Of a stretch of 64,000 nt of DNA, positions 1,456 through 48,803 are shown piece after piece (the first letter of the stretch is position 1; the number at the start of each line of letters is the position of its first letter). The stretch comes from Candidatus Micrarchaeia archaeon (lineage in GTDB: Archaea; Micrarchaeota; Micrarchaeia; CABMEP01), in contig JAVZXS010000002.1 of the NCBI GenBank assembly GCA_038886535.1, forward strand, positions 1-64,000, written 5' to 3'. The notes below the pieces were generated by a model, which was not told the origin of the DNA, made no database searches, and saw only the letters and a program-made list of their open reading frames with translations. A program made the position numbers and the translations under genes.

Positions 1456-3633
1456 ATGAGTAAAAAGAGACTCAGTAAACAGCAAAATACAAATGAACAA
1501 AACAGGAACGAAAAGACATATATGGATAGAAATGAAAACGCTAGAAATGAGAGTAGCCCAGATAGAAATGAAAATATAGATAAGAACAGCGAGATAAATA
1601 CTATAAATAAAGAAAGAGATAAAATTAGGCATGGCTTTCTGAATGAGTTTTTGATTAAGTTTCTGAAGAAATACAATATCCCGTTTCACTCATTTTATAT
1701 AGAACCTTCTGAATCTGAGAGTAAATTCAAGACTGATTTGAAAAGAGTAGGTCAAGAAAAGTTAGAGAAGATCGTACAAGAGAACAATGCATATCTCTCA
1801 ATTTTAGAAACGCTGATAGAAAATATAATATCCGATGATGATGCAGAGACAATAAAATATACTTTTAACTATGGAATTCTTGATATTGATGCAAGATTTA
1901 AAGACGGAACCACCCCTCTTTTTAAGGCTTGCGTATTGGGCAAATATAAAGTTGCAAAACAGCTAATTAAATTAGGTGCGGACGTTAATCTCACATCTGA
2001 AGGTTACACTCCATTATCTATTGCTTGCGGCGCTAATCATATAGAAATAATCAAACTTCTTCTTGAAAATGGAGCTAAGGTCAATTTCACTGAGCAGAAG
2101 ATTACCCCGCTTGAAGTGGCAATAGCACAAAATAATGTAGAAATAGTTAAAATTCTGCTTGATAACGGTGCAGATCCAAACCTTTTTTGCCTGCGACCGC
2201 CTTTATTTGCAGCTTGTGAAAGTGGAAACAAGGAAATTATCAACCTACTTATAAGTCATGGTGCAAACATGAATATTCTTTATGCTCCATTCAGACCTAT
2301 CAACGTAGATAATACAATTTCTCTTTTGTCATATATGGTATACCTAGCAAAAGAAGATGTGATCAAATTACTTATTGATCATGGAATAGATCTCAATATT
2401 AAAAATGGAAATGGAATGACAGCCTTATCATATCTCTCTGTTCAATCTTACAGATATCTTAATGATAACACTATAAAAACATTGATTAAAAATAGGACAA
2501 CTCTACCATCAAAAGAAGAATATAAAATCATGTTATTTAGGATCGCAAAAGAATTGATTAAGGCAGGAGCAGACATCAATAGTGAAGATAACGATGGTTG
2601 GACGCCGCTAATGTTTGCTTGTAAATATGGTGAAGAACAACTTGTAAAATTATTTTTGAAAGCAGGTGCAGACCCTAATCATCGTTCAAAAGCAGGAACA
2701 ACTCCACTATCTATAGCTGCAGTTAATAATCAGATAGGTGTAATAAGGTTTTTAATCGAAGCAGGTGCAGATCCAAATATAACAAGTTCAACTGGAAAGA
2801 CACCATTAATAAAAGCAACCGAAAAAGGTTATTTAGAAGCAGTGAGAACTCTCATAGAGAACGGTGCAGATCTCGATATTAGAGATGAAGAAGGCAATAC
2901 TGCATTGTCTTATGCTATGATAGCACGAAGAAAAGATATAATAAGGCTCTTACTAAAGAACAAAGCAAACCCCAATGTAAAAATAAGCCGATCTCTTACT
3001 TTAAAAGAGCTGCTTAAAGAAGGAATACCTTTATTTATTGCTGAAAATTTAAAGAAATACGGATTTGAAGAGAATAGTAAAATAAAGATCAGTTTTTCAT
3101 GTTTGAGTTTTGCATTATTTCAAGGTGACATAGATATTATCGAGTCTCTCCTTGAAAACGGTGCAGATGTGGAGCTGATTGACAACGGCTTAACTCCTTT
3201 AATGATAGCAGTTTTATCAAACAAAAAAGAAATTGTAAAATCGATTTTAAAATATAAACCAAACATTAATGCAAAAGGCATATCAAACATCACAGCCATG
3301 CATCTGGCAGCGATGAAGAATAAAGATTCAGACATAATTGACCTTTTGATAAATTATGGTGCAGATATAGAAGCAAGGGATTCGGCTGGTTTGCCCCCTA
3401 TCGTATATGCTATTCAGAGCAATAATACAAATGCAGCTAAGGCTTTAATAAAGTACGGGGCAAAAACAAACTTTAAATTTCCAGATGGTCGCAGCTTATT
3501 TGTTTATGCTGTGCAAAATAAATTTTCAGATATTTCTCTTATTTCAGGAGGAGATGATATCGAACCAATTGCATTAGATTTTAAAGAAATAACAAAGGAA
3601 AAAAGTAAAAGAAGCATTAAGAAGAAAGGCTGA
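1456..3633 (+). CDS. Ankyrin repeat protein (about 15 repeats) with Asn-rich N-terminus
   Basis: Repeated TPLxxA...vklLl.xGAdvN units (TPLFKAC, TPLSIAC, TPLEVAI, TPLMFAC, TPLIKAT, TPLMIAV etc.). Confidence 0.95.
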   Translation: MSKKRLSKQQNTNEQNRNEKTYMDRNENARNESSPDRNENIDKNSEINTINKERDKIRHGFLNEFLIKFLKKYNIPFHSFYIEPSESESKFKTDLKRVGQEKLEKIVQENNAYLSILETLIENIISDDDAETIKYTFNYGILDIDARFKDGTTPLFKACVLGKYKVAKQLIKLGADVNLTSEGYTPLSIACGANHIEIIKLLLENGAKVNFTEQKITPLEVAIAQNNVEIVKILLDNGADPNLFCLRPPLFAACESGNKEIINLLISHGANMNILYAPFRPINVDNTISLLSYMVYLAKEDVIKLLIDHGIDLNIKNGNGMTALSYLSVQSYRYLNDNTIKTLIKNRTTLPSKEEYKIMLFRIAKELIKAGADINSEDNDGWTPLMFACKYGEEQLVKLFLKAGADPNHRSKAGTTPLSIAAVNNQIGVIRFLIEAGADPNITSSTGKTPLIKATEKGYLEAVRTLIENGADLDIRDEEGNTALSYAMIARRKDIIRLLLKNKANPNVKISRSLTLKELLKEGIPLFIAENLKKYGFEENSKIKISFSCLSFALFQGDIDIIESLLENGADVELIDNGLTPLMIAVLSNKKEIVKSILKYKPNINAKGISNITAMHLAAMKNKDSDIIDLLINYGADIEARDSAGLPPIVYAIQSNNTNAAKALIKYGAKTNFKFPDGRSLFVYAVQNKFSDISLISGGDDIEPIALDFKEITKEKSKRSIKKKG

Positions 3634-22953: not shown

Positions 22954-25779
22954 TTATTCGATTTTACCTATTATCACTTTTTGTAATTCAACAGGAGGAA
23001 TTGCATTTGCCATTTCTATAGCAAATGAAAGTTTTGTTTCGCTTTCAGATACGATTTCAAATAAAGTATCTCCAGGATTAACTTTATCACCTGTTTCACA
23101 ATGTAGTATTATTCCTGCTCCTTTATCTTTCGGTGCGCCAGCAACTCTAGCTATTTTATTTATATATTTGTTGTCAACGTGCGACACTCTTCCTCCCTTT
23201 TCTGCTTTAATTGCATATCTATAATGACCGATTGGAATATCATCCTCCTTTACATTTGGATTTCCACCTTGCGCCTCTACAATCTCTTTGAATTTTTCAT
23301 ATGCCTTTCCACTTTTGATAATGTCAAATGCATAGTCAGCACCTTTTCCAACTGGCGCCTTCCCAAGCATTTCTAAGATACTTCCAGCCATAAGGCAGCT
23401 CTTCTCCCTCAATTCCTCTCCATCTTTCATTTTAAGCGCTTTAAGGACTTCAAGACATTCAAGACCCGGACCTATACCAAATCCTATTGGATCAGATCCA
23501 TCAGTTATTAGACATCGTGTTTTTATTCCAAGCTGTTCACTAACTTGTAGAAAATCATTCGCTAGCAATCTTCCCTCTGATTCATTTTCAACTTTTGCAC
23601 CTCTTCCAACAGGAATGTCAACAATTAGATACTCCGCGCCTACTGCTTTCTTCTTTCCCAGGATAGATGCTAGTAGAAGACCTTTTGGATCTAGGTGCAA
23701 AGAGTTTCTTATTCTGATTAATTTGTCGTCTACTGGCGCTAGATTTATTGCGCCTCCCCATGCAATACATCCATGTGTTTTAAGAACAACTTTTCTCAAT
23801 TCTTCAATGGGAAGAACAACAGGCGCAAAAACCTCAAATGTATCTGCAGTTCCGGACGCAGATGAAATAGCTCTTGATGATGTTTTCGGAATATATACTC
23901 CGGCAGCTGCAAGAATAGGAACGATTAACATTGTAGTTCTGTTTCCCGCAACTCCTCCTATACAATTATGCACTGCGATTGGCGCAGTTCCAGCCATGAA
24001 TCTGTGATAACCATCAACTTTAATATCATATACGTATTCTGTATTAGGTTTTATCAGTTCGATTCTTTTAATGCGTAAAACAGACAACTGTCCTCTTATG
24101 AATTTCCTAACATCTTCGCTTTTAATATGGGCCATAATGCGTGATAGTTTTTCCTTTGTTATATACTTTTGTTCTTTTAATAGCTTTCTAAAACGCCAAT
24201 CAATTTTATTTTTATCGATCTCTCCAATTTCTTTTATCGGCAGTAGGTTGAGGAATGAGATATTCGCTTTCTTTCTCTCGCCAAAGATTTGGCGTGCTTG
24301 CGTGTATACATAGTATGAATCTTGAGTCATTGCAGTTTGTTTTGGAAATTTTCTTTTCTTCCCCCCAGACATCGACAATTTGGCTGAACATCCCATCAAG
24401 CTAAGCAAGTACTGTAATCCTATTGCCAGATTCTTAGAAGAAGTCACATAAATAACTTTGTATCCTCTTCTCACATATCTATCTCCAGCAAATAACGCCT
24501 TTATGAATTCTTTTTTCATTTCTTCATCTAAATCAAAAATGAATGGTGGAATCTGTTTATTGAGGGCATCGCTTCCAGCTTTCAGTTTTTCAAATTCTTT
24601 TGCAAGCTTTTGGTTATAAATACATATGCGGATTGCGGTTTTATGCACCCTGTTAATTGTCGGTTCTTTTCCAAATAAATGCTTAATGCATGCAACCGCG
24701 TCTTCGATAAGTTCCTTTTCGTGAGAACCAAAATTCAGGAAGATGCCTTGAGAATTTGTAAATCCTTCTGCAATGTAATATCCCAAAAATCTCATAAATT
24801 CACGATCGATCTTTATTTCTTTCTCTCCAATGCTAATCCTTTCCAGTTTTTCTTTGTTTTCATTTTTGAATCCAGAAGGTACAACCACATAATCTCCAAC
24901 TTTTAATTCCTTCGCCATGATGTTGGTTATCTTTCCATTTTTTAGAATAAAAACAGTATGGTCGGAAGTCACAGCGATGTTTCTATTTCCAACTAATGAG
25001 ATTTTATAAAGTTTATCCGGTGCCTTCACTCGAAATACACCAGAAACAGGTTTGAATGAAACATTTCCTTCGTCATCAAATACAAGGGTCTGGAGTCCGT
25101 TTAAATTTTTATTAGTAAATTCCGCACCATCATCATTTATAATTTCATCTGGCTTGCATCGATCAAATATTTTGTCAATTGCATCACCAATGTTGACAAC
25201 CTTTGCTTCTCCACTATTCTTTATTAAGATAGGTACGTCTCCAGCCAGGCAATGCTTATCTGCAATAGGGTGGACACCAAGATCTAATGTTGTTCCTGTT
25301 TCAACCATTGCCTTAGCAAGAGAAACTGTTTCCCCTATTCCAAATCCATTTATATACGCAGCTGCAATGAATGATGCAAGTTCACCTTCACTTAATCTAT
25401 TTTCAACTGTTTCTTTTACTATAGTATATATCTCGTTTTCAGTAAGCGATTCTCTATCCATTTTTTTCTTTATATATTCTAATGATTTTGGAACCGGGAT
25501 ATGTTGTATTTCTACAATATCGCCATCTTTAACTTTCAATTGTTTTGCTATATCTTTATAAATTGCCACGTCTCCTTTTTTAACCATTGTTTCTGATGTA
25601 TCTATTATAGATATTACTTCTTTTCCTTTGTATTTTATACTCACTCTGTCAGATATGTAAATATCATTATAAGTTGCTTCTTCCTCATTAAGAATAGCTA
25701 TATTTTTTCCAGCTTCTATGTCCAATATTCTTACTTTGAATCTATGAATTCTGTGTGGAATTTCTTTGTTTATTTTCAT
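22954..25779 (-). CDS. AMP phosphorylase, intein-containing (about 512 aa after splicing)
   Basis: DKH/CIGGVAGN, PKTSSRAISSASGTAD, IPVGRGAK, AGAPKDKGAG; N-terminal extension typical of archaeal AMP phosphorylases; adjacent to R15P isomerase. Confidence 0.95.
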   Translation of the reverse strand: MKINKEIPHRIHRFKVRILDIEAGKNIAILNEEEATYNDIYISDRVSIKYKGKEVISIIDTSETMVKKGDVAIYKDIAKQLKVKDGDIVEIQHIPVPKSLEYIKKKMDRESLTENEIYTIVKETVENRLSEGELASFIAAAYINGFGIGETVSLAKAMVETGTTLDLGVHPIADKHCLAGDVPILIKNSGEAKVVNIGDAIDKIFDRCKPDEIINDDGAEFTNKNLNGLQTLVFDDEGNVSFKPVSGVFRVKAPDKLYKISLVGNRNIAVTSDHTVFILKNGKITNIMAKELKVGDYVVVPSGFKNENKEKLERISIGEKEIKIDREFMRFLGYYIAEGFTNSQGIFLNFGSHEKELIEDAVACIKHLFGKEPTINRVHKTAIRICIYNQKLAKEFEKLKAGSDALNKQIPPFIFDLDEEMKKEFIKALFAGDRYVRRGYKVIYVTSSKNLAIGLQYLLSLMGCSAKLSMSGGKKRKFPKQTAMTQDSYYVYTQARQIFGERKKANISFLNLLPIKEIGEIDKNKIDWRFRKLLKEQKYITKEKLSRIMAHIKSEDVRKFIRGQLSVLRIKRIELIKPNTEYVYDIKVDGYHRFMAGTAPIAVHNCIGGVAGNRTTMLIVPILAAAGVYIPKTSSRAISSASGTADTFEVFAPVVLPIEELRKVVLKTHGCIAWGGAINLAPVDDKLIRIRNSLHLDPKGLLLASILGKKKAVGAEYLIVDIPVGRGAKVENESEGRLLANDFLQVSEQLGIKTRCLITDGSDPIGFGIGPGLECLEVLKALKMKDGEELREKSCLMAGSILEMLGKAPVGKGADYAFDIIKSGKAYEKFKEIVEAQGGNPNVKEDDIPIGHYRYAIKAEKGGRVSHVDNKYINKIARVAGAPKDKGAGIILHCETGDKVNPGDTLFEIVSESETKLSFAIEMANAIPPVELQKVIIGKIE
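23965..25251 (-). mobile_element. Intein (429 aa) with LAGLIDADG homing endonuclease region in AMP phosphorylase
   Basis: Starts CLAGDVP after DKH; block B VTSDHTV; LGYYIAEG and LFAGDR motifs; block F YVYDIKV; ends VHN before Cys+1. Confidence 0.95.
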
Positions 25780-25806
25780 ATCCTCACCATTCGGATGATT
25801 ATTAAT

Positions 25807-26712
25807 TTATTCATTTTGCAGATATCTTTCAACCGCACTCATTATATTTTGTGGAGGTATTATACCTAATTCAGTGATATACGCTCTTATATATGAGGGA
25901 GGTGTAACATCAAAAGCAGGATTAATAACTTTCAATCCTTTTATCTTTTTGGCAAGAACTTCTTTTGGATCTCTCATTTCTATTTCTGTCATCTTTCCGA
26001 ACTTAGTGAGCGGATCAAATTTATATATCTGGGTAGCAGAATAGAATGGAACCTTCATATCATTTGCTACAGTTGCGATTGTGGATGTTCCTATTTTATT
26101 ATATAATGATCCATCCGTAGCTATAGCATCTGCCCCAACAATTACCATGCTAACATCTTTCATAACATATCGAACAGCTGAGTCAATTATAAGGGTTACA
26201 TCTACACCAGCAGAGGCAAGCTGCTTTGCAGTTATGTGGCCCTGATAGAGAGGTCTCGTTTCAGTGCAGTATACCTTTATTTTCTTTTTCTTATTTGCTT
26301 GTATGAGAATGCTGTTAACTGTTGTACTATGGCAATGAGTTAAGATAACTTGGTCGTCCCAAATCATTTCTGATCCATATTCAGTTATTTTTAGAAATGA
26401 TTCAGTAAACATCTTGTCATATATCTTCATGGTTTCTTCTGCAATTTTCTTTATTTCTTCTACATCTTTTCCTTTCTCAAGCCTTGCGAAAAAGAATCTA
26501 AGTGTGTTTCTTGCCATTGGTTCAGTGGGTCTGAGTGAAAGAAGTTTCTCACTTGTTTTTTCTATTTCATTTAAAATCTCCTCTCTTGTTTTTGCATTGC
26601 TTTTCTGAATGCTAATTACCAATGCCTTTGCAGTAGCTTCTGCGACTCTTCTTGCACCTTGAATCTTCAATGCTTTTATATCCCGCATTATTCTTTTAAC
26701 TTCTGCTGCCAT
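25807..26712 (-). CDS. Ribose-1,5-bisphosphate isomerase (eIF2B-like)
   Basis: IQGA, RPTEP, LTHCHS, ETRPLYQG, VGADAI, NKIGT, NPAFDVTP; co-oriented upstream of AMP phosphorylase. Confidence 0.93.
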   Translation of the reverse strand: MAAEVKRIMRDIKALKIQGARRVAEATAKALVISIQKSNAKTREEILNEIEKTSEKLLSLRPTEPMARNTLRFFFARLEKGKDVEEIKKIAEETMKIYDKMFTESFLKITEYGSEMIWDDQVILTHCHSTTVNSILIQANKKKKIKVYCTETRPLYQGHITAKQLASAGVDVTLIIDSAVRYVMKDVSMVIVGADAIATDGSLYNKIGTSTIATVANDMKVPFYSATQIYKFDPLTKFGKMTEIEMRDPKEVLAKKIKGLKVINPAFDVTPPSYIRAYITELGIIPPQNIMSAVERYLQNE

Positions 26713-29318: not shown

Positions 29319-31013
29319 ATGAAAATAAAATTTGTAGAGAATGAATTATACATTAAAACAAAAAGTTGCAGAATATTCTCTATTTTAATTTTTATTTTAT
29401 TATCTTTTTCTACTCTCTTTTCATTTCCGATTGATGTAAAATGGAAGGTTCAAACAACACAGACTTCAACAGCACCAGTAATTGGACAGGATTATCTATT
29501 TTCAATTTCAGACTCTGGAAACGTGGTAGCATTTAATCGCTTCACAATGGCGAGAGTTTGGAATTTAGATCTAGGTAAAAGCGTGAAGTATCAATCAAGT
29601 TTCATAAGTAATATTCTTTTCGTTCCAGCTGGAAATACATTATTTGCAATTTCAAAAGATGGACAGATAATAGGAAACATATCATTTAATTCCACCATCT
29701 CTATTCCAGTTGTTCAGGTAGGTTCAAACTTAGTGGTTGCAACAAGGGATGGGAATGTTTATATAATATCGCAGCCAGGTAATACATTTACAAATAAAAA
29801 TATAATAAAAGCAACTAGATTAGATGGAGAAATAGATTCGTCTTTTACAGTAAGCGGAAATAAAATTTTCATAGCTACAGTTAGTGGTAAGATTTATTCA
29901 ATAGATCCGGCGGGTTCTCCAGTACTTTTATATGATCTTGGGTATTCGGTATGGCGATCAAGACTTGCCATTACTAATAATACAATTTATGTCCCAGCTG
30001 AGCACTCATTATATGGAGTTGACATGCAAGGTAAGCTTCTTATTGTAAAAAGAATTGCAGATGGCAATCTCAATTCAATAGCAACAGATGGAGAGAGGCT
30101 TTATATCGGTTCTGATGATGGTTATTTGTACTCTTTAGATCTTGAAGGGAATATCATTTGGAAGTTCAAAACAAACAATTCAATCAAAAGCGTTCCAGTT
30201 ATTCTTCAAGATTCAATTTTAATCTCTTCTAGGGACAACAACATATACAGCATAAATAAGAAAGGAAATCTTAAATGGAACATTTCAGTTTCAGATTGGC
30301 CAAGTGATATAGTTGAAGAAAGAGGAGTGTTTTATTCTACTGCATACGATGGAACAATTTATGTAGTCTCATTACTTTCATGCCAAATAACAAATCCTGA
30401 AGTCGGTTCTACTATTCTTCCAATTGTGACGGTAGCAGGTGATGCTTATTCAGAGAATGGGGTAAAATTAGTTCAAGTAAGAACAGTGCCGGGAGAATGG
30501 CAATCTGTTAATTTGCATGGAGATGGAAATAATTTAAGTTGGTCTGGAAATATTCAGATTACAGGATTTATAGAAGGAGAGGTGTCTCTTCAGTGCAGAG
30601 TGATAGACAAATATGATAATCAAGAGCAGTCTCCTTATTTCACTTCGACCTATAATTTTGTTTTCTCAGAAGAAAAACTACCTAAGATAAACGTTTCTTA
30701 TCCTTCGCAAGTTAATGTGAATCAGCCAATTATAATAAAATTCTTTACTACAGAAGGAGCTATCTTAACAGATGTTAATGTAAAAATTGGTGGAGAGACA
30801 TTTAAAGTGACAGATAAATCAGGACAGTTTACATATACTCCTGCAAAGGAGGGGGACTTAACTATTTATATTGAGAAATCAGGTTATCAACAGAGACAAA
30901 TACAAATAAAAGTTACAAAACCTTTAATTCAACCGATATATGTAGCGATAATATTTCTTGTTGCAGTAGCAATAGTCATATATTCCTCAATAAGAAAAGG
31001 AACTTGGAAATAA
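29319..31013 (+). CDS. Secreted, C-terminally anchored PQQ-type beta-propeller protein with Ig-like domains
   Basis: Signal peptide; repeats such as YIGSDDGYLYSLDLEGNIIWKF; C-terminal TM followed by basic tail. Confidence 0.85.
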   Translation: MKIKFVENELYIKTKSCRIFSILIFILLSFSTLFSFPIDVKWKVQTTQTSTAPVIGQDYLFSISDSGNVVAFNRFTMARVWNLDLGKSVKYQSSFISNILFVPAGNTLFAISKDGQIIGNISFNSTISIPVVQVGSNLVVATRDGNVYIISQPGNTFTNKNIIKATRLDGEIDSSFTVSGNKIFIATVSGKIYSIDPAGSPVLLYDLGYSVWRSRLAITNNTIYVPAEHSLYGVDMQGKLLIVKRIADGNLNSIATDGERLYIGSDDGYLYSLDLEGNIIWKFKTNNSIKSVPVILQDSILISSRDNNIYSINKKGNLKWNISVSDWPSDIVEERGVFYSTAYDGTIYVVSLLSCQITNPEVGSTILPIVTVAGDAYSENGVKLVQVRTVPGEWQSVNLHGDGNNLSWSGNIQITGFIEGEVSLQCRVIDKYDNQEQSPYFTSTYNFVFSEEKLPKINVSYPSQVNVNQPIIIKFFTTEGAILTDVNVKIGGETFKVTDKSGQFTYTPAKEGDLTIYIEKSGYQQRQIQIKVTKPLIQPIYVAIIFLVAVAIVIYSSIRKGTWK

Positions 31014-31641
31014 ATCCTGAATGGATGTATCTATTGTTAACCTCATTTAAAATATTTCTTTTTTCATTCCCACTTTTCCAAACAATATAGCTACAGATAA
31101 ACGTAAGAGAGAGGGTCATTATTGCTATTATTTCTATTCTTTCATTTGGAATTATTGGATGGGTTCCAATCAAATAGTCAAAAGCATCATTAAGCAAATA
31201 GAACCCAAATATTAGGAATAAATCCTTTTTCTTTATTTCTAATCCAGTTAAAGCAAGTCCTTCCAACACGAGACCAAGATGTGCGATAAATAAAATTGAG
31301 TAAGTAAAAGGATCAGAAACAAGAAAGTAATTATAATAAAATAGGATTACAAACATAGTCCATGTTCCATATTTAATTGAACCGACTGCAGTGAAGTTAG
31401 TAAGGAATCTAAATAGTCCAAATAATTTTTGGTTAGTGGGATTTTCTTCTTTTCTCCATATATCTCTTAATTTCCAGATTAATATAATCCCAACTAACAA
31501 TGCTTGTAAAGGACAGTCAATTATTAATAGCCAGTATAAAAAATTCCAATCAGAAAGTTGATCTGAATAATAGTAGACACCATATAAAAATCCTATAAAA
31601 TTTATAACTGCTATAATCAAGAGTAGATTTCCTTCTTGCAT
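30976..31641 (-). CDS. DUF1405-like membrane protein
   Basis: YYYSDQL, IDCPL, IKYGTW, NDAFDYLIGTHP. Confidence 0.8.
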   Translation of the reverse strand: MQEGNLLLIIAVINFIGFLYGVYYYSDQLSDWNFLYWLLIIDCPLQALLVGIILIWKLRDIWRKEENPTNQKLFGLFRFLTNFTAVGSIKYGTWTMFVILFYYNYFLVSDPFTYSILFIAHLGLVLEGLALTGLEIKKKDLFLIFGFYLLNDAFDYLIGTHPIIPNERIEIIAIMTLSLTFICSYIVWKSGNEKRNILNEVNNRYIHSGFISKFLFLLRNI

Positions 31642-31676: not shown

Positions 31677-32156
31677 TTATTCTTTAATAATTTTTATAGG
31701 CACTCCTCCAACAAAACTGTTTTGTCTAACATCCTTATTCACAAGGGACATCGCAGATATCTTAGCATTATTTCCTATCTTAACTCCTGGAAGTATTGTG
31801 CAATTTGCCCCTATCATAACATTTTTACCTATATCAACATTTCCTATTCTTAATTCTTCCTGTAAGAATTCATGTGTCAATATTGTAGAATTAAATCCTA
31901 TAATAGTGTTATCTTCTATTTTGATTAGTTCAGGAAAAAATATGTCAAACGTGACACCTAATCCAATTGATACGTTCTTACCTATCTTCATTCCAGTCAT
32001 TTTGTAAAGTAATCTTTTGATTGTCAATGAAGGCATGTATTTAGCAAGATATATCAATATGAAATTATATATTATTATCAAAGGGTTTTTTACTTTATAC
32101 CAATAAAGAAGCGAATTTCCTTTTCCAGAGAATCTTATGGATTTGAGTCTTCTCAT
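31677..32156 (-). CDS. Hexapeptide-repeat (left-handed beta-helix) acyltransferase
   Basis: GMKIGKNVSIG, ILTHEF, IGANCTILPGVKIG, GGVP. Confidence 0.92.
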   Translation of the reverse strand: MRRLKSIRFSGKGNSLLYWYKVKNPLIIIYNFILIYLAKYMPSLTIKRLLYKMTGMKIGKNVSIGLGVTFDIFFPELIKIEDNTIIGFNSTILTHEFLQEELRIGNVDIGKNVMIGANCTILPGVKIGNNAKISAMSLVNKDVRQNSFVGGVPIKIIKE

Positions 32157-40160: not shown

Positions 40161-40853
40161 ATGGCAGAATCTAAAAAGATACAAATTGGAATTTCTGGAA
40201 TAGATGACATGCTTAATGGCGGAATACCTAAAAGGCATCATGTGCTTGTTTCAGGTGGTCCTGGAAGCGGAAAAACATTATTCTGCTTTGAATACCTTTA
40301 CAGGGGTGCAAAGAAAGGTGAGAAAGGTCTTTTTATTACCTTAGAAGAGGATCCAGAATTAATAGTTGAAAACGTAAAGGGCGCATTTTCAGGATTGAAG
40401 GATATAGATTCAATGATAAATAAGGATATATTTATCATCAAACCTGCAATGTATGACTTCAAAAACTTTTCAGACATCCTCCAGTCGTATGTGGTTCACC
40501 ATGGAGTTAAAAGAGTGGTCATAGATTCATCTACTTTACTCAGATTCAGCTTTGAAGAGGTTTTAGAGTTTAGGAAGAAACTTATTGAATTCCTTAGTTT
40601 CTTAAGAAATCTGGATTGCACTGCATTGATTACTTCAGAGCTAGAGAATCCAGTAAGAAACAAAATGAAGTTCAAAATAGAGCATTTTGCAGCAGATGGA
40701 ATTATAGTTCTTTACAACATGCCAAGAAAGGAAAAAAGAATAAGGGCTTTAGAAATAATAAAAATGAGAGGAACAGACCATTCAAGAGATTTAGTCCCAA
40801 TGAAGATCACATCCCAAGGAATAACTGTATTTCCGGGTGAAAAGATCTATTGA
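40161..40853 (+). CDS. KaiC-like (RecA-superfamily) ATPase with intact motifs
   Basis: GGPGSGKT Walker A, TLEE, VIDS, KMRG. Confidence 0.93.
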   Translation: MAESKKIQIGISGIDDMLNGGIPKRHHVLVSGGPGSGKTLFCFEYLYRGAKKGEKGLFITLEEDPELIVENVKGAFSGLKDIDSMINKDIFIIKPAMYDFKNFSDILQSYVVHHGVKRVVIDSSTLLRFSFEEVLEFRKKLIEFLSFLRNLDCTALITSELENPVRNKMKFKIEHFAADGIIVLYNMPRKEKRIRALEIIKMRGTDHSRDLVPMKITSQGITVFPGEKIY

Positions 40854-40900
40854 TTGATGATAATATAGAGATTTAATAAGAGAGTTAAGATAGTGGTTCA

Positions 40901-41710
40901 ATGAGAATCGATAATGAATATGTTTCATTTATTTTCGATCTTGAACAAGATATAGATTTAAGCAAGCTTTCAAAAAGCAAGAACTTTCTTTCGCTTCCAA
41001 ATGAATCTAACTTTTTGTTTTCTGTTATTGAAAACAAGATATTTTTCATTGTTTTTAAAAGCGGAAAAGTGAGGATCACCTATCCAAACGGTGATGTAGA
41101 ATCTCTTCAGAAAAATATTTCAGAGTTTGCACCAAAGATAAGTGAATTATTCAACGAAGTTAAAGAGAAGGCTAAGATAAAGGCAAACATATCCTCAGTT
41201 ATTTCAAAAGGAAGATTGGAAAGCGAAAAAGATGGCTTTGAGATAAGAAAAGATATCTGCGAGAAGGATTGTTCGATTCCAGTAGGGCTTTTTTTCGATT
41301 TGGCTTTTCTTTCTCCAATGCAGTTGTTCGGTCAATACAACCATGAAAGATTGCTAACCTTTTCAGGAGAAAAATTCGGTAGAAAGATATCTGCTAAGAA
41401 TAAGCAACATTTAGAGAAAGAAATAAAGAAGTTTATTGAACAGAATAATTTAGGGTTAGTTGAAATAATCAAACCGAAGGAGGATGAAATAGGAGCCATG
41501 CCTTTTTCTTCCTTCAGAGTATATAAAAGCAAGTTTGTGTATGGATTGCCGCCAACTGGAAGGGCAGAATGTTATTTCATACAAGCTCTGATAAGGGGCG
41601 CATTTGCAGCATATCTTAAGCAGGAAAATATTAATGTGATTGAAACTAAATGTTGGAGAAAAGGAGATGTTTATTGCGAATTCAATGTTTACCTGTTAAA
41701 ACATTCATGA
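40901..41710 (+). CDS. V4R-domain protein with putative N-terminal TBP-like half-domain
   Basis: C-terminal CYFIQALIRG...ETKCWRKGDVYCEF (V4R); N-terminal DLEQDIDLSKL...IVFKSGKVRIT. Confidence 0.8.
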   Translation: MRIDNEYVSFIFDLEQDIDLSKLSKSKNFLSLPNESNFLFSVIENKIFFIVFKSGKVRITYPNGDVESLQKNISEFAPKISELFNEVKEKAKIKANISSVISKGRLESEKDGFEIRKDICEKDCSIPVGLFFDLAFLSPMQLFGQYNHERLLTFSGEKFGRKISAKNKQHLEKEIKKFIEQNNLGLVEIIKPKEDEIGAMPFSSFRVYKSKFVYGLPPTGRAECYFIQALIRGAFAAYLKQENINVIETKCWRKGDVYCEFNVYLLKHS

Positions 41711-41835
41711 TTAGTATTTATATTACGAATTTATAGGTATAGATATTTTTATTAATTAGATGTATTAATATTTTTATTAATATTCTAAAAATATATTCTA
41801 ATGATCAATAAAAAGTACAATAAAAAGTAGGTTTT

Positions 41836-42525
41836 ATGAAATCTCAAAAGGATAAAATAGGAATAGATTTTATAGATAATCTAATGCAAGGAGGACTTCC
41901 ATCAAAGACAGCTCTGCTAATAGAAGGCACATCTGGAATTGGTCAGAATGTCATGCTTTATCAATTCATTTATGAAGGAATAAAGAATAACGAAAAATGC
42001 ATCTATCTATTTTCAGGGCATATGATAGATGAGATATTGGATGAGTTTGAGTCTTATGGAATAGAGGTAAAGGAAAAAGATATTGTTTGGATTGATGCCT
42101 CTTCTTCAAATGAAAATGCAATTCAATGCGATTTATCAGAACTTTACACTGTTTCTTCAGCTATTAAAAATGTGTTATCAAGCAGAAAGAAAAACGAAAA
42201 GATAAGATTTGCTACTGATGCAGTATCTCCCATGCTGATGGCAAATAATCCAGCAGAGGTTTACAAGTTTCTTTCATCTCTTATAACAGAGCTGAAGAAA
42301 GCAGATGCACTGTCAATGTTTATAATCGAGGATGCAATGCACGAACCACAGGTAACTGCATCTATAGAGCAACTTTGCGACGGAGTTATTGAATTAAAGG
42401 CAATTGAAAGAGATTTGGAAATCGAAACAGTAATGAAGATAAAGAAGATGAAGAATATTCCTCCATTTCAAAAGTATTTCAAATATAAAGTTACAGAAGA
42501 AGGTATAATAGAAAAGAGGGAATAA
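41836..42525 (+). CDS. KaiC-like protein with degenerate Walker A (probably catalytically inactive)
   Basis: GTSGIGQN lacks the Walker A Lys; no EE pair; LCDGVIEL and KKMK retained. Confidence 0.85.
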   Translation: MKSQKDKIGIDFIDNLMQGGLPSKTALLIEGTSGIGQNVMLYQFIYEGIKNNEKCIYLFSGHMIDEILDEFESYGIEVKEKDIVWIDASSSNENAIQCDLSELYTVSSAIKNVLSSRKKNEKIRFATDAVSPMLMANNPAEVYKFLSSLITELKKADALSMFIIEDAMHEPQVTASIEQLCDGVIELKAIERDLEIETVMKIKKMKNIPPFQKYFKYKVTEEGIIEKRE

Positions 42526-42526
42526 C

Positions 42527-43285
42527 ATGTCTGAATTTACAAGCGAATCAAACTTAACAAACATAATTGCAGAGATCGCAGGATTGTCAGCTCCATTCTA
42601 TTTAATAATTGCATTGTCTCTGCCAATCATAGCCGCCTTACTAGTATATAGATACTTAATAACTAATAAGATAGTTGTTGACAAATTAGCAAAGAAAAGA
42701 CTCTTTGCCTCTATGCTTACTGCAGTGTTTTCAATCTTATTCACTGAGATAGATGCAATAGGATCACTGACTGGATTGGAATTCGGACAATATGTTCTGA
42801 TAAGAAGATATGTGGGTGCAGTTGCAATATACGGAGTTTATCTTTTGTTCTGTTCGCTAATTGAATCTGCTTTGAAATATGATTACACCCATAACAGAAA
42901 GAGGCTAGTGCAGGACGGACATATGGGAAGAATATCCAGCTTCCTTCTCATAGCCATACTGATTATTTCTCCATTTATTGGGGATAAGCAGCTTTCAGAT
43001 TTCTTTACATTCATGATAGCAGTACTCTTGCTTTTAATTATGATAATCGCACTAAAAGTTTTGAAAGATACTGAAAAGGGAATAAAAGACAAAACAACAA
43101 GAAAATTCACTGTATGGTCTTGCTATCAGGTAGTTTTCATGAGCATAGGCGCATTTTTCAATACAGTTGCAATATTGGCAAGCCTTCCACCTGCAGCAAA
43201 CCTGATAAGAATACCGATGTCAATCCTAGTTGCATATGCAGCTTATAAGGTTTCAAAGAATTTAATAAAAGTAGAAGAAGAGTAA
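42527..43285 (+). CDS. Seven-TM membrane protein (possible sensor)
   Basis: Seven hydrophobic segments; starts 1 nt after the second KaiC-like gene. Confidence 0.7.
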   Translation: MSEFTSESNLTNIIAEIAGLSAPFYLIIALSLPIIAALLVYRYLITNKIVVDKLAKKRLFASMLTAVFSILFTEIDAIGSLTGLEFGQYVLIRRYVGAVAIYGVYLLFCSLIESALKYDYTHNRKRLVQDGHMGRISSFLLIAILIISPFIGDKQLSDFFTFMIAVLLLLIMIIALKVLKDTEKGIKDKTTRKFTVWSCYQVVFMSIGAFFNTVAILASLPPAANLIRIPMSILVAYAAYKVSKNLIKVEEE

Positions 43286-43297
43286 TAAGGTGATCTT

Positions 43298-44524
43298 ATG
43301 GATTCAAATCTTCCAAAAAGAAGAGAGACATTTCAGGTAAAGGTCGGAGACATAACTATTGGCAGCCAGCATCCAATCGTAGTCCAGTCAATGACAAATA
43401 CCAATACAGCTGATGTTGATTCAACTGTAAAACAGATAATAGAACTTCATAAAGCAGGATCAGAAATGGTAAGATTCACAGTAAAAGATGATGAAATGGC
43501 AAAGGCAGTTCCAGAGATAAAGAAAAAACTTATTGATCAGGGGTACACTCTTCCTCTAATAGGGGATTTTCATTTCAACGGAGACATCCTTCTTTCAAAA
43601 TATCCAAAGATGGCAGAGTCTCTTGACAAATGGAGGGTCAATCCAGGAAATGCAGGAAGCGATGAAAGATTTAGAAATATCATAAAGCTTGCAATAGATT
43701 ACAACAAGCCTATAAGAATAGGCGTAAACGGAGGTTCATTGGATCAAAAACTTCTTGCAAGGATGATAGAGAAGGATTTGAAGAAACCAAAAGAAAAGCA
43801 GCTTGGTTCCCACAGGGTTTTTCTTGATGCAATGATAAAGAGTGCATTAACATCTGCAGAATCTGCAATAGAGGCAGGAATGCCAGAGAATGCAATTATA
43901 TTATCAGCTAAGGTATCGAATGTGAGAGATCTCATTTATGTTTATTCTAATCTTGCAAAGAAATGCAAGTTCCCCCTTCATCTAGGGCTGACAGAGGCTG
44001 GAGGGGGATCAAAGGGAATAGTTGCATCAGCACAAGGAATAGGGATTCTTTTGAATCAGGGAATCGGGGATACGATTCGTGTTTCTATCACTCCAAGGCC
44101 AGGGCAAAGTAGGACTGAGGAAGTGATTGTTGCCCAAGAAATACTTCAAACTCTTGGTCTCAGGGCGTTCTTCCCGATGGTTACGAGCTGTCCGGGTTGT
44201 GGAAGAACAACGAGCACTGTTTTTCAAACCATAGCAGAGGAGATAAGCAAGTATCTTCAGCAGCAGTCTCATGTTTGGAGGGCGCAGGGATACAAGGGAT
44301 TTGAAAACATGAAGGTTGCAGTCATGGGGTGCATTGTCAATGGTCCGGGCGAGTCAAGAGAGGCAAACATAGGACTAAGCCTGCCAGGATCTGGAGAAAC
44401 CCCATCAGCTCCTGTGTTTGCAGATGGAAAACAGATTGCAACCCTGACCGGAGATGCAAGATCCATCTCAGAGCAGTATAAGAAATTGATAGAGGATTAT
44501 GTGAAGACGCATTATAGAATTTGA
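43298..44524 (+). CDS. ispG: (E)-4-hydroxy-3-methylbut-2-enyl-diphosphate synthase (MEP pathway)
   Basis: VQSMTNT, DFHF, RVNPGN, RIGVNGGSL, PLHLGLTEAG, GIGDTIRVS, CPGCGRT, VMGCIVNGPGE. Confidence 0.98.
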   Translation: MDSNLPKRRETFQVKVGDITIGSQHPIVVQSMTNTNTADVDSTVKQIIELHKAGSEMVRFTVKDDEMAKAVPEIKKKLIDQGYTLPLIGDFHFNGDILLSKYPKMAESLDKWRVNPGNAGSDERFRNIIKLAIDYNKPIRIGVNGGSLDQKLLARMIEKDLKKPKEKQLGSHRVFLDAMIKSALTSAESAIEAGMPENAIILSAKVSNVRDLIYVYSNLAKKCKFPLHLGLTEAGGGSKGIVASAQGIGILLNQGIGDTIRVSITPRPGQSRTEEVIVAQEILQTLGLRAFFPMVTSCPGCGRTTSTVFQTIAEEISKYLQQQSHVWRAQGYKGFENMKVAVMGCIVNGPGESREANIGLSLPGSGETPSAPVFADGKQIATLTGDARSISEQYKKLIEDYVKTHYRI

Positions 44525-44577
44525 TTTCCTGGATTTTATTAAACAGCATATTTATAAATATATACTATAATTATCAT

Positions 44578-44651
44578 ATAAGCGACATTGTTGATATTAT
44601 TGGTAAAAGTATAGTAATTATACTATTACCTTATCAATTTTAGTCGCTTAT
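44578..44651 (+). promoter_or_regulatory. Long imperfect hairpin in the probable 5' UTR of the surface protein gene
   Basis: Nested pairs ATAAGCGAC/GTCGCTTAT, TTGATA/TATCAA, GGTAA/TTACC, AGTATA/TATACT; TATA-like TTTATAAA at 44551. Confidence 0.7.
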
Positions 44652-44671
44652 TTTATATTTGGGTGAATCTA

Positions 44672-47600
44672 ATGAAAAAATTATCTGTAATTTTGTCTTT
44701 CTTTCTTTTTGGACTGCTGAGTGCAGTCTCTATTAATTTAATCTCTCCAGCAAATAACACATTTACAAATCAAACAACTGTTGCTTTTGTATTTAATGCT
44801 ACAGATGATGAAAATACAACTCTAAATTGTAGTTTGTATATCAACGACGCTCTCAATATAATAAATGAAACAGTGGAGAACAGTTCAATTACTAATTTCA
44901 CACTTACAGATGTTAGTGAAGGAAATTATTTGTGGTATATAAACTGTAGCAATGGAATAGACATAAATACCTCTGATATTTATAACCTCACAATTGATAC
45001 ATCTGGCTTCATAATCTATTCAATAGGTGCTGCAGAACCAGATCGGTTTGTGTCGAATAATTCTGCAAATAATCAGCTAACCTTGATTGTAAATGCATCT
45101 GACAATGGACCTGCAGGAATTGATTATTTAACTGCAAACTTCACAGCATTGCAGCAACCAGGACTTGATTATGTTAATATGACATATAATGATACAACAG
45201 GATTGTGGAATGCAACGATAACAGTTACAGATGTAAGCAATTTTGAATTCACTCCACTTAATGTTTCTGTATTCGGTTTCGATAAGGCTGGCAATGGATT
45301 GGGCGGAGGACAGTCATCAACTATGTTCACTCTCTACAAATTCAGCCAACCTACATTTGTCGGTAATCCATGCTACCAATGGGGAGATTCAACAACAGAT
45401 TTGACCGAAGAAACAGATTTTGAGCATGTAAACTATGTGCTTGAACTACAGGTCAATGTATCTTGCATGATGGACGGATTGCCACCAGGTTCTCCAAGCT
45501 GGATGAATCAGTTTGAAACTGTAGCATTGTTTAACTTTACATCCTTAAACTTTTCCGATCCTTCAACAGGTCCAAAGCTTGCAGCTCTCGCAAACAACAT
45601 GCAAGTAAATATCACCCTGCCTGGAGAATTTGGAGATTCAAGAATATATTTCAATACATCATATCTCTCTGAATTTAACACAACCGCAGTTGTGAAATTA
45701 TTCCATCTTCCATTTGTTTCACAACCAAATATTGAACCAGATCCAGACGCAGCAGGTTATGATGACACTTCAATTGTGTGGGACCAGGGCGTAGGAGAAG
45801 GTAATCTTACCTTCACAGTTTATGGTTTCTCAGGCTACAATATAACTGATGACGTAGCTCCAAACATAACTTTGAATTCACCAAACCCATCTATGCCATA
45901 TACCAATGATTCTACCCCAACAATAAACATAACTCTAAATGGAACAAAGACAACAATAAGCTACTTGCTTGTTCAGATAGATAATACAAGCTATGTGTTT
46001 AATTCAACAGTCAACCAAACCAATTGCCAAGCAACTGCAAATCCAGAAATCATGAATTGTGTGTTTGATAGCAGCAATTTGTCAAACGGACAGCACACTT
46101 TGTTCATACTGACGCGTGACTTTGGTGGGGAATCTGGAAACGCAGCAAATTACACAATTAACTTTACAGTAGATACTGTAGCTCCAACAGTAAATATCAC
46201 TTCGCCAACATCAAATTCAATTAAGGGAGAAGTAATACATATACAGATTACTGTTTCTGAGACTGCAGATACAAATATTTCAATATACAATAGTACAGGT
46301 GCACTAGTTAATTCAACAATGATAAATAACAATACATCAATATCTACTTCATTGTCTGTTCCTGCTGAAGGCATTTATTCCTTAGTTGCAACATCCTGTG
46401 ATATTGCAGGAAACTATGGAAATGCAACAGTTTCAAATATAACAGTTGATATGACAAATCCAGTTGTTGTCATATCATTACCAACAAACGATACAGAATT
46501 TGATTCCGCAACGATAACAATATCTGGAAATTCAATAGATGAAAATCTGAACTACACAAACATTTCAATCCAAGTTAGTGGACAGTTAATAAGTTCCACC
46601 ACAACAACAAATTCATCATGGAGTGTCAAATTAGCAGTTAACGCAAGTTTGAGTGAATATTATATCATGGCAAAAGCATATGATCTTGCAGGCAATTATG
46701 GAATTGTAAATGTAACAAATATAACAGTTAATGATACAACTGCACCATCTGTAACTGCTATAAGCGCAACAACTTCAGGATCAACAGTTACACTAAGTGT
46801 AACAACAAATGAGTTTGCAGTATGCAGATATTCAACAAGCGACATTGATTACGAAAACATGTCAAACATGACAACAACGGGTGAATTATCGCACAGCCAT
46901 TCAATAACGTACAGTTCAACAACATCTGGAACATTTTATGTCAGGTGTGTAGATCCGATTGGAAATGTAATGAACTCATCAAACAGTACAACTTTCAGTG
47001 TTACAATATCTTCAGGAAGTTCAAGCTCTTCATCATCAACCACAAACCAAACAACAAATGTCACACCATATGTTCCACCTGTGACACCGCCAACAACACA
47101 ACCGCAACCTGAAGAAACGCCAGCCCCAACAACCCCTATAAGTGTTGTTTCATCAACTGCTTCAACAGTTGTGTTTAGCTTGAATGCAGTTGCTGGAGAA
47201 CAAATAACTATAGATGTTGCAAAGATGGCAAGCGGAGTTGCACAAGGCACTGGAATATCAAAGATATCAATCGCTACAAGATCAGCAGTGTCTAATGTAC
47301 AGGTTGCAATAAAGCCTGTAGAAAAACCATCTTCCATTCCAGAGCCAGCAAAGAAGGTTCTCAATTATATAGAGATTAGCTTTGGAGGAGCAAGCGATGC
47401 AGTTCAAAGCGCAAAGATAACATTCACATTGAAGAAGTCAGACATCAGAAAGCAAAACATAGATTCAGATACAATCAAGCTCCTAAGATATGCAAACGGA
47501 CAATGGCAGGAGCTCCAGACAGTGAAAGGATTTGAGGATCTTGAATCAATAACATTTGAAGCAACCACGCCAGGCTTCAGCTACTTTGCAATTGCAGGAA

Positions 47601-47785
47601 GCGAGATACAGGCTCCAGCAGAAACTCCTAAAGTTACAACAACAACTACTGAAGAAGAACCCGGAATAACAGTGGTTTCTGAAAAGAAGGAGGAGAGCCC
47701 GTTAGGATTGATACTGCTGATAGCAGTTATCCTGATAATAGGATACATTGTGCTAAGCAGCCAGAAGCCATGGAAGACAAAATAA
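44672..47785 (+). CDS. Large cell-surface glycoprotein with Ig-like repeats and PGF-pre-PGF domain
   Basis: Signal peptide, many N-x-S/T sequons, DxxAP/DxAGN Ig-like repeats, Ser/Thr/Pro linker, ATTPGFSYFAI, C-terminal TM. Confidence 0.9.
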   Translation: MKKLSVILSFFLFGLLSAVSINLISPANNTFTNQTTVAFVFNATDDENTTLNCSLYINDALNIINETVENSSITNFTLTDVSEGNYLWYINCSNGIDINTSDIYNLTIDTSGFIIYSIGAAEPDRFVSNNSANNQLTLIVNASDNGPAGIDYLTANFTALQQPGLDYVNMTYNDTTGLWNATITVTDVSNFEFTPLNVSVFGFDKAGNGLGGGQSSTMFTLYKFSQPTFVGNPCYQWGDSTTDLTEETDFEHVNYVLELQVNVSCMMDGLPPGSPSWMNQFETVALFNFTSLNFSDPSTGPKLAALANNMQVNITLPGEFGDSRIYFNTSYLSEFNTTAVVKLFHLPFVSQPNIEPDPDAAGYDDTSIVWDQGVGEGNLTFTVYGFSGYNITDDVAPNITLNSPNPSMPYTNDSTPTINITLNGTKTTISYLLVQIDNTSYVFNSTVNQTNCQATANPEIMNCVFDSSNLSNGQHTLFILTRDFGGESGNAANYTINFTVDTVAPTVNITSPTSNSIKGEVIHIQITVSETADTNISIYNSTGALVNSTMINNNTSISTSLSVPAEGIYSLVATSCDIAGNYGNATVSNITVDMTNPVVVISLPTNDTEFDSATITISGNSIDENLNYTNISIQVSGQLISSTTTTNSSWSVKLAVNASLSEYYIMAKAYDLAGNYGIVNVTNITVNDTTAPSVTAISATTSGSTVTLSVTTNEFAVCRYSTSDIDYENMSNMTTTGELSHSHSITYSSTTSGTFYVRCVDPIGNVMNSSNSTTFSVTISSGSSSSSSSTTNQTTNVTPYVPPVTPPTTQPQPEETPAPTTPISVVSSTASTVVFSLNAVAGEQITIDVAKMASGVAQGTGISKISIATRSAVSNVQVAIKPVEKPSSIPEPAKKVLNYIEISFGGASDAVQSAKITFTLKKSDIRKQNIDSDTIKLLRYANGQWQELQTVKGFEDLESITFEATTPGFSYFAIAGSEIQAPAETPKVTTTTTEEEPGITVVSEKKEESPLGLILLIAVILIIGYIVLSSQKPWKTK

Positions 47786-47809
47786 ATTAAATTAAGCCAA
47801 GTTGATAAA

Positions 47810-47840
47810 AGGGCGCACGCCCTGCTTTTTATTTTTTATT
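47810..47840 (+). terminator. Hairpin plus T-tract terminator after the surface glycoprotein gene
   Basis: AGGGC-GCAC-GCCCT followed by GCTTTTTATTTTTT. Confidence 0.6.
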
Positions 47841-47933
47841 TATTTTTTAAGTTCCTTTTCGTATTTTGCTATATTTATATTTCTTTTCTTCTTTAATACC
47901 ATTGTTTTCAAAAATTGAAACATAGGTGTTTTT

Positions 47934-48803
47934 ATGGAGATAATAGTTGCAGAACCTAAAGGCTTCTGTTTTGGAGTTAAAAGATCTATTGATATGGTTG
48001 AGAAGGCGATCAAGGAAGGAAAGAAAAACATTCAGATCTTTGGTCCTATAGTTCATAATCCTCAACAGATTGCTCTCCTTGAGAAAAAAGGAGTAAAGAT
48101 GGTTAATACTATTGATGAGATCCAGCCTGGAACTGTTTTTATCAGGGCACATGGAGTTTCACCAGATGTTTTCAAAAAGATAAAGGAAAAAGCAGTAGAG
48201 GTAATCGATGCAACATGTCCCTTTGTTAAAGTGGAACAGGAATATGCAAGGAAGCTTGCAGAAGAAGGCTATCAAGTGATAGTAATAGGTGAAAAAAACC
48301 ATCCAGAAGCACTAGGCGCACAAGGATATGCTCCGGGTTCTATCATAATAGGAAGTGTTGAAGAAGCAAGAGGGTTAAAGGAAACACCTAAGATCGGAGC
48401 TGTAGTTCAAACTACATTAGAGCCAGAGGCAGTGGATGATATAGTTGCAGAACTTTATCATAAGGCAAAGGAAGTGAGGGTTTTCAATACAATCTGCCAA
48501 TCAACAAAGATGAGACAGCCTGCTGCAAGGAAGGTTGCACAGGAAGCTGACATAATGATAGTTGTTGGAGGAAAAAATAGTGGAAATACAAGAAGGCTTG
48601 CTGAGGTTTGCAGCAGAATAAAGCCAACCTATCATATTGAAACCGCTGCCGAGCTTAAAAACGAGTGGTTCAAAGGAGTAAACAAGGTTGGAATCAGTGC
48701 AGGCGCTTCCACCCCTGAATTCATAATTGACGAAGTTATAGAAGCAATAAAGCAAATCGATAAAAAAATTGGTAAAAATAATGAAAATAAAAGGAAAAAA
48801 TGA
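47934..48803 (+). CDS. ispH: 4-hydroxy-3-methylbut-2-enyl diphosphate reductase (MEP pathway)
   Basis: GFCFGV, IVHN, RAHG, DATCPFV, HPE, QTT, TICQST, SGNT, GASTP. Confidence 0.98.
   Translation: MEIIVAEPKGFCFGVKRSIDMVEKAIKEGKKNIQIFGPIVHNPQQIALLEKKGVKMVNTIDEIQPGTVFIRAHGVSPDVFKKIKEKAVEVIDATCPFVKVEQEYARKLAEEGYQVIVIGEKNHPEALGAQGYAPGSIIIGSVEEARGLKETPKIGAVVQTTLEPEAVDDIVAELYHKAKEVRVFNTICQSTKMRQPAARKVAQEADIMIVVGGKNSGNTRRLAEVCSRIKPTYHIETAAELKNEWFKGVNKVGISAGASTPEFIIDEVIEAIKQIDKKIGKNNENKRKK

Follow-up and report, generated by a model that had tools for sequence, protein, structure and literature searches.

A complete bacterial MEP pathway in a family of Micrarchaeota, where it has probably replaced the mevalonate pathway

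Introduction

Bacterial genes for isoprenoid synthesis through methylerythritol phosphate (MEP) are known from several DPANN archaea. They occur in 52 Woesearchaeota genomes (PMC8204110), and the parts of PMC8204110 and PMC8421398 available to us (citing Castelle and Banfield, 2018) describe a horizontally acquired pathway with fused ispD/F. The available parts of PMC12892359 (Natl Sci Rev 2025) report the complete pathway in Zaosheniarchaeales, Norongarragalinales and Micrarchaeales, with gcpE in a fraction of 0.875 of Zaosheniarchaeales, and geranylgeranylglyceryl phosphate synthase (GGGPS) and its digeranylgeranyl counterpart (DGGGPS) present without glycerol-1-phosphate (G1P) dehydrogenase. 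Here we analyse ispG and ispH, predicted to encode the last two MEP steps, in a 64,000-nt stretch ('the window') of a Micrarchaeota genome (G000; GCA_038886535.1). The window opens contig C2 (JAVZXS010000002.1), covering its first 64 kb, and the genome is a 1.14-Mb assembly of 40 contigs (88.26% complete, 0.25% contaminated). Genomes, contigs and loci are designated below by G, C and L numbers.

The pathway described here resembles that of Woesearchaeota in its bacterial type, its fused ispD/F and its horizontal acquisition. In Woesearchaeota the genes are co-located and GGGPS and DGGGPS are reported absent in the parts cited, whereas G000 carries them at six sites on three contigs and retains the ether-lipid enzymes. 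With PMC12892359, as far as available, it shares the inferred order, the complete MEP pathway, GGGPS and DGGGPS, and the lack of G1P dehydrogenase. Dataset S7 of that paper lists, in its CABMEP01 block, named records with 95–97% IspH and 99% RadA identity to G000, and judging by these congeners G000 probably belongs to Zaosheniarchaeales. Counted from its rows, the 15-genome block has dxr 14, gcpE 14, GGGPS 13, DGGGPS 14, TPI 14, GAPDH 1, and PGK, HMGCR, MVK, ipk and araM all 0; it includes two congeners of G000 and agrees with our findings. The presence of MEP in this order is thus an already known trait, confirmed here, and its published range (52 Woesearchaeota genomes and this Micrarchaeota order) exceeds the 'few DPANN genomes' allowed by an earlier reading of the window from its letters (the sequence-only reading). 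What we add is mevalonate exclusion at the genome level and leads on substrate supply. According to the main text of PMC12892359, in its available part, the orders in question 'also have' MEP, and an ipk route is suggested for them; the exclusion goes unstated there, although it is visible in the paper's own table. The link to triose-phosphate isomerase (TPI) and the dxs-less forms described below are not stated in the available part of that paper, nor did we find a statement of them in the literature, of which subscription papers and supplementary figures or text may hold one.

Results

IspG and IspH are predicted to be intact

The genes and their ribosome-binding sites are as follows.

43288..43295, + strand: Shine-Dalgarno site of ispG, AGGTGATC; the 16S 3′ end located at C1:53 is complementary to it
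43298..44524, + strand: ispG, for a 408-aa hydroxymethylbutenyl diphosphate (HMBPP) synthase of the long, Thermus-like type that keeps its three Fe-S cysteines
47924..47928, + strand: Shine-Dalgarno site of ispH, AGGTG
47934..48803, + strand: ispH, for a 289-aa HMBPP reductase that keeps its three Fe-S cysteines and its substrate-binding motifs

Proteins were identified by curated NCBIfam/TIGR cut-offs, and scores are written as bits/cut-off. Both products match over their full length (IspG: TIGR00612, 376.7/280.25; NF001540, 442.9/345; IspH: TIGR00216, 295.2/187.85; NF002187, 292.9/276). IspG aligns full length with 4s38 (E 1e-152), which we take to be the Thermus thermophilus enzyme, and IspH with 3dnf (E 2.5e-78), which we take to be Aquifex-type; Fe-S and substrate motifs are identical. 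In IspG, C298, C301, C345 and E352 match 4s38, as do the TIM-barrel substrate motifs; in IspH, C12, C95, C188, H41, H73, H123, E125, QTT, KNSGNT and SAGAST match 3dnf/4h4c. These residues presumably act as Fe-S ligands and substrate motifs. Unlike the two reference proteins, the G000 versions belong to an archaeal host with archaeal neighbours and ferredoxin. The alignments confirm IspG and IspH as predicted intact HMBPP synthase and reductase, as the sequence-only reading had proposed from their length and Fe-S Cys motifs.

The full MEP pathway is encoded and mevalonate genes were not found in the family

Genes for all seven MEP steps occupy six sites on core archaeal contigs (C1, C2 and C4): besides ispG and ispH, dxs (C1:268747, 721.9/465.95), dxr (C1:238948, 513.4/315.7), ispE (C4:46364, 159.9/138.7) and a fused ispDF on the window's own contig (C2:115312), whose two parts are each barely above cut-off (ispD 182.3/181.3, ispF 118.9/116.45). 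In our set of 151 Micrarchaeia genomes, the family of G000 (f1) is represented by nine genomes in three genera; IspG and dxs occur in all nine, IspH in 8/9 and Dxr in 7/9. HMG-CoA reductase (HMGR), HMG-CoA synthase (HMGS) and mevalonate kinase (MVK) were found in 0/9 each, MVK giving only weak cross-hits to IspE. G009, the one genome of the sister family (75% complete), has all three and lacks IspG, IspH and Dxr. Of the two options in the sequence-only reading, a full pathway or a terminal module, the genome search thus bore out the former; the loss of mevalonate genes in the family, found by the search which that reading had proposed, had not been foreseen.

G000 also encodes candidate partners of the pathway: a 77-aa ferredoxin (C1:98605), next to which lie an IOR-type oxidoreductase and a NiFe hydrogenase; an FNR-like protein (C3:69505); and NifS/NifU. 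IspG and IspH could be reduced by the ferredoxin, itself reduced by the adjacent oxidoreductase, or by the FNR-like protein, and NifS/NifU would build their Fe-S clusters.

We are confident, short of certainty, that a complete and long-resident bacterial MEP pathway has replaced the mevalonate pathway in this family, with ispG and ispH as its last two steps. Single gene absences in G000 are soft because the genome is 88% complete, and this tells against the replacement, as do some figures given below.

MEP as the probable isoprenoid source for archaeal lipids and carriers

GGGPS of G000 passes its equivalog cut-off (211.2/161.55) and is kept in 143/151 Micrarchaeia genomes; within the family, IDI-2 was found in 9/9, GGGPS in 8/9 and CarS (CDP-archaeol synthase) in 5/5 genomes searched. 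Also kept in G000 are CarS, a GGR-family protein, a cis-prenyltransferase, inositol-1-phosphate synthase, an archaetidylinositol-phosphate-synthase-like gene, an IdsA-type geranylgeranyl diphosphate (GGPP) synthase and a DGGGPS-like UbiA protein. In G075 the start of ispH overlaps with the gene of an IdsA-type prenyl synthase. Since mevalonate genes were not found while IDI-2 and the GGPP, GGGP, DGGGP-like and CDP-archaeol synthases are kept, the synthesis of archaeal lipids and carriers is probably supplied by MEP, its isopentenyl and dimethylallyl diphosphates (IPP and DMAPP) going into diether lipids and glycan carriers. Archaeal ether lipids have been obtained from MEP-derived isoprenoids in E. 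coli (PMC5889666, available part), much as proposed here; that, however, is an engineered bacterium, whereas here we have a natural archaeon in which fatty-acid and acyltransferase genes were not found (PlsX, PlsY and Fab, E. coli queries, no match in G000). Queries from E. coli are poorly suited to archaeal forms: the archaeal TPI and phosphoglycerate mutase escaped them and were later found by Pfam. With GpsA also found in 0/31 genomes searched, lipids based on glycerol 3-phosphate or fatty acids were rejected.

Several points weigh against a supply of ether lipids from MEP. The IdsA-type synthase and the DGGGPS-like protein are best-family assignments below their equivalog cut-offs. PF13685 (G1P dehydrogenase) has no match in G000, and in the published table (PMC12892359, available part) almost no Micrarchaeota have the dehydrogenase; because neither it nor GpsA was found, self-made ether lipids need a further backbone source, and E. 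coli queries for glycerol kinase (GlpK), GlpA and GldA gave no match in G000. In co-cultures, Ca. Micrarchaeum harzensis has lipids identical to those of its host (PMC8975820, available part). Together with the cis-prenyltransferase, the missing backbone enzymes and the host lipid profile would also fit a complete MEP pathway that supplies minor isoprenoids only (dolichol or undecaprenyl carriers), bulk membrane lipid being acquired in finished form from the host and remodelled or supplemented by the ether-lipid genes. This is possible, but we think it rather unlikely given that GGGPS scores above its equivalog cut-off and is so widely kept, and that CarS, the GGR-like protein, inositol-phosphate synthase and the archaetidylinositol-phosphate-synthase-like gene are retained.

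MEP and mevalonate genes exclude each other across Micrarchaeia

Dxr or IspH was found in 19/151 Micrarchaeia genomes, in five families. HMGR occurs in 0/19 of these MEP genomes versus 118/132 others, HMGS in 0/19 versus 11/12 and MVK in 0/19 versus 12/12, the last two against a control set of 12 chosen non-MEP genomes. The 19 include G085 (unpublished), without which the exclusion figures are 0/18. Since kin are not independent, we do not rely on Fisher's test of MEP versus HMGR (p 1e-15), and the exclusion rests on about five to seven lineages. It is weakened by the 14/132 non-MEP genomes that also lack HMGR.

The absences could still conceal a mevalonate variant, for instance an isopentenyl-phosphate-kinase route, to which MEP would be auxiliary. 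PMC12892359 says, in its available part, that Zaosheniarchaeales seem to make IPP via ipk; moreover, IDI-2 is retained and the genomes behind the absence calls are 54–94% complete. We nevertheless regard such a variant as very improbable: the Dataset S7 rows of the same paper give ipk 0, HMGCR 0 and MVK 0 in all 15 block genomes, tblastn of G000 with the relatives' IPK-like protein, MVK, PMK/DMD and HMGR gave no match, and the only GHMP kinase found in G000 is IspE.

TPI adjoins MEP genes in three genomes and was not found in dxs-less forms

Replacement of mevalonate by MEP raises the supply of pyruvate and triose phosphate to DXS. Pyruvate could come from nucleoside salvage, for which G000 encodes AMP phosphorylase, ribose-1,5-bisphosphate isomerase, RuBisCO, phosphoglycerate mutase, enolase, PEP synthase and PPDK; RuBisCO and the four enzymes after it would complete the route. 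No route to glyceraldehyde 3-phosphate was found, Pfam or NCBIfam scans having covered 433 of the 1,173 called ORFs of G000 (soluble, enzyme-like, on C1–C13). GAPDH is present in 1/5 genomes searched (G001, not G000) and DeoC/class I aldolase in 0/5. E. coli queries for PGK, FbaA, PfkA, FsaB and a transketolase other than Dxs gave no match in G000, nor did FucA, Eda, Edd, Zwf or DeoB; a motif of FBP aldolase/phosphatase has its sole match in G000 in a 978-aa ORF on C10. An archaeal-type TPI is nonetheless kept (C2:147338), with GAPDH, PGK and aldolase not found.

TPI occurs in 12/19 MEP genomes, 12/14 with dxs and 0/5 without. In G026 and G080 the genes run dxs-ispE-ispH-dxr-ispG-ispD-tpi, tpi being last and overlapping ispD (no IspF was found in the 20 kb fetched around these clusters), and in G146 TPI directly follows dxs. 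G146 belongs to another family with MEP (f5), in which it is the only one of six MEP genomes with dxs or TPI; TPI is present in 2/15 non-MEP genomes of f5. The other five (G032, G061, G085, G133 and G143; 92–97% complete) have dxr, ispG and ispH without dxs or TPI. UPF0047/YjbQ genes adjoin ispG/ispH in G133 and G032. In G026 and G080 a gene with a helix-turn-helix (HTH) domain immediately precedes dxs (L126:13790-14539, L161:15550-16245), and in G000 it is 1.5 kb upstream (48–51% identical); it proved to be no enzyme and may be a regulator or mark a shared insertion site.

Because the controls come from TPI-poor families and TPI is common elsewhere, we count only physical linkage and the f5 pattern as evidence on TPI. 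In three other genomes TPI lies within the MEP cluster or next to dxs, which suggests that imported triose phosphate (dihydroxyacetone phosphate, DHAP) is isomerised by TPI for DXS. Telling against this, two of the 14 dxs-positive genomes lack TPI (G002, 94% complete; G004, 54%), TPI of G000 is unlinked to its MEP genes, and other orders of Micrarchaeia commonly have the enzyme for glycolysis. With no route to glyceraldehyde 3-phosphate or G1P found, both triose phosphate and lipid backbone probably come from the host; an inositol-phosphate synthase without a source of glucose 6-phosphate fits the same dependence. The conversion of DHAP to the DXS substrate by the otherwise orphan TPI and the host origin of triose phosphate and lipid backbone are the least certain steps of the scheme.

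The truncated form in five of six f5 MEP genomes, and the fact that the window contains only ispG and ispH of the MEP genes, would suit the other option in the sequence-only reading, a terminal module in which IspG and IspH use scavenged MEcPP or HMBPP without an upper pathway. For G000 this is refuted, and we give it scarcely any weight, because dxs, dxr, ispD, ispE and ispF all pass their cut-offs there; dxs, moreover, is in every genome of the family.

The genes are long resident

Among the best 120 of about 8000 relatives for each protein, the closest are 71–92% (IspG) and 68–97% (IspH) identical, the named ones being Micrarchaeota, and named bacteria come next at about 58% and about 50%. 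Four independent assemblies (82–97% protein identity) keep the gene order, HAD-ispG-PGF-ispH-radA in L048 and L049 and ispG-PGF-ispH-radA in L050 and L051. The dN/dS values against congeners are 0.040–0.051 for ispG and 0.029–0.046 for ispH (three pairs each, the fourth being saturated), and dxs, dxr, ispDF and ispE are native-like in codon use. Codon use of ispG is atypical (GC content at third positions, GC3, 0.355, the 99th percentile of 445 genes), which counts against long residence; its neighbours are also raised in GC3 (0.27–0.34).

In gene trees, built by FastTree alone from a sparse sample of bacteria, the G000 genes fall together with the family genera g1 and g2 (support 1.0 for IspG, 0.973 for IspH and 0.973 for Dxr). 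Nearest for IspH and Dxr are G111 and unnamed or Norongarragalinales-named proteins, and IspG falls in a loosely supported (0.879), DPANN-rich group beside Thermus and proteobacterial forms. G026, G061, G075 and G080 have a short IspG type; the long and short types and their tree positions indicate at least two acquisitions in the class. In G002, a member of the family, ispH, ispG and dxr form a cluster with dxs next to them (L165, G002:C1:80000-99999), in a position close to that of the dxs locus of G000 (NMD3 neighbour). This set is divergent (33–46% identity to G000; dxs 67%), which suggests that it has been replaced or evolves fast. We claim no donor, because the cluster look-up named only a Thermus cluster. 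With the genes family-wide (IspG 9/9), in one clade in two of three genera and under purifying selection, the assimilated horizontal acquisition of the sequence-only reading is supported. Assembly chimerism or bacterial contamination, to which foreign-looking small contigs (lysozyme on C6, F-type conjugation on C7, MnmE on C10) and the ispG codon use might point, can be dismissed, since the MEP genes lie among archaeal core genes on C1, C2 and C4, the four other assemblies share their order and the closest homologues are those of Micrarchaeota.

Gene context of ispG and ispH

Other features of the window are listed here.

22954..26712, − strand: AMP phosphorylase and ribose-1,5-bisphosphate isomerase, with an inferred link to MEP
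40161..43285, + strand: KaiC-V4R-KaiC-membrane protein block upstream of ispG, outside the pathway
44663..47785, + strand: PGF-pre-PGF surface protein gene with no relation to the pathway, ATG 44672 being its probable start
47810..47823, + strand: terminator-like hairpin with T run in the gap between the PGF gene and ispH, a consensus match only

The window is archaeal in gene content (archaeal DnaG, topo VI, Spt5, RadA, GatE). As noted from the letters, ispG starts 12 nt after the upstream genes, here the stop of a 252-aa membrane protein gene (42527-43285), and a PGF-pre-PGF gene (domain score 83.6 bits, cut-off 28) separates ispG from ispH. AGGTG does precede both (43288-43292 and 47924-47928); the claim that the neighbours share it stands for the PGF gene (GGTG at 44662) and fails for the KaiC, V4R and membrane protein genes. 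GGTG lies near an early start in 122/445 core genes. The hairpin and the 138-nt gap after ispG suggest three transcription units, ispG, the PGF gene and a separate ispH; a sigma-70 promoter scan was at chance level (24 matches versus 20.8).

Some congeners have the KaiC-V4R-KaiC-membrane block; in L048, L049 and L010 it is missing between the HAD gene and ispG; at least three further KaiC paralogues lie elsewhere in G000. The PGF gene varies in length among congeners and, as ispG and ispH are adjacent without it in the sister genus (G001), was either inserted later or lost there.

A YvoF-like heptaprenylglyceryl-phosphate acetyltransferase gene (31677-32156, −; 188.8 bits, below the cut-off of 300) lies directly upstream of a DUF1405/LhaT-like gene (30976-31641, −). 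The pair resembles the Bacillus lipoprotein N-acetylation module (PMC12345273, available part), and lies here in an archaeon that also has GGGPS. The window further holds an ankyrin-repeat protein (1456-3633), others forming a tandem array on contig C12 (L159), and inteins with LAGLIDADG domains in RtcB and AMP phosphorylase (11176-14133 and 22954-25779). Elsewhere in G000, three tandem deoxynucleoside kinase genes stand beside PDH E1-like subunits and a RibB-like gene on C1 (L118:17636-19159, L119:1-780), and a long RelA/SpoT homologue (652 aa; HD_4, RelA_SpoT and TGS domains) on the core archaeal contig C4 (L144:4922-6880). The small contigs C6, C7, C8 and C10 (L150–L157) include phage-like (C6), F-type conjugative (C7) and bacterial-like (C10) sequence; because of these four foreign-looking contigs the bin is larger than those of most congeners.

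Discussion

Beyond replacement in one family, we tentatively propose, at somewhat less than even confidence, that these archaea make their ether lipids solely from MEP isoprenoids; that Micrarchaeia underwent the swap several times, strictly losing mevalonate; that the pathway starts from host triose phosphate through a recruited native TPI; and that a further lineage dropped dxs and TPI and starts from 1-deoxy-D-xylulose 5-phosphate (DXP) obtained otherwise.

If the points added here hold, these Micrarchaeota would offer a natural case of archaeal ether lipids built from precursors of a bacterial route. This would be relevant to the lipid divide and give a lipid isotope signature to look for. 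The added points would also name metabolites that a DPANN symbiont draws from its host: triose phosphate, G1P and perhaps DXP.

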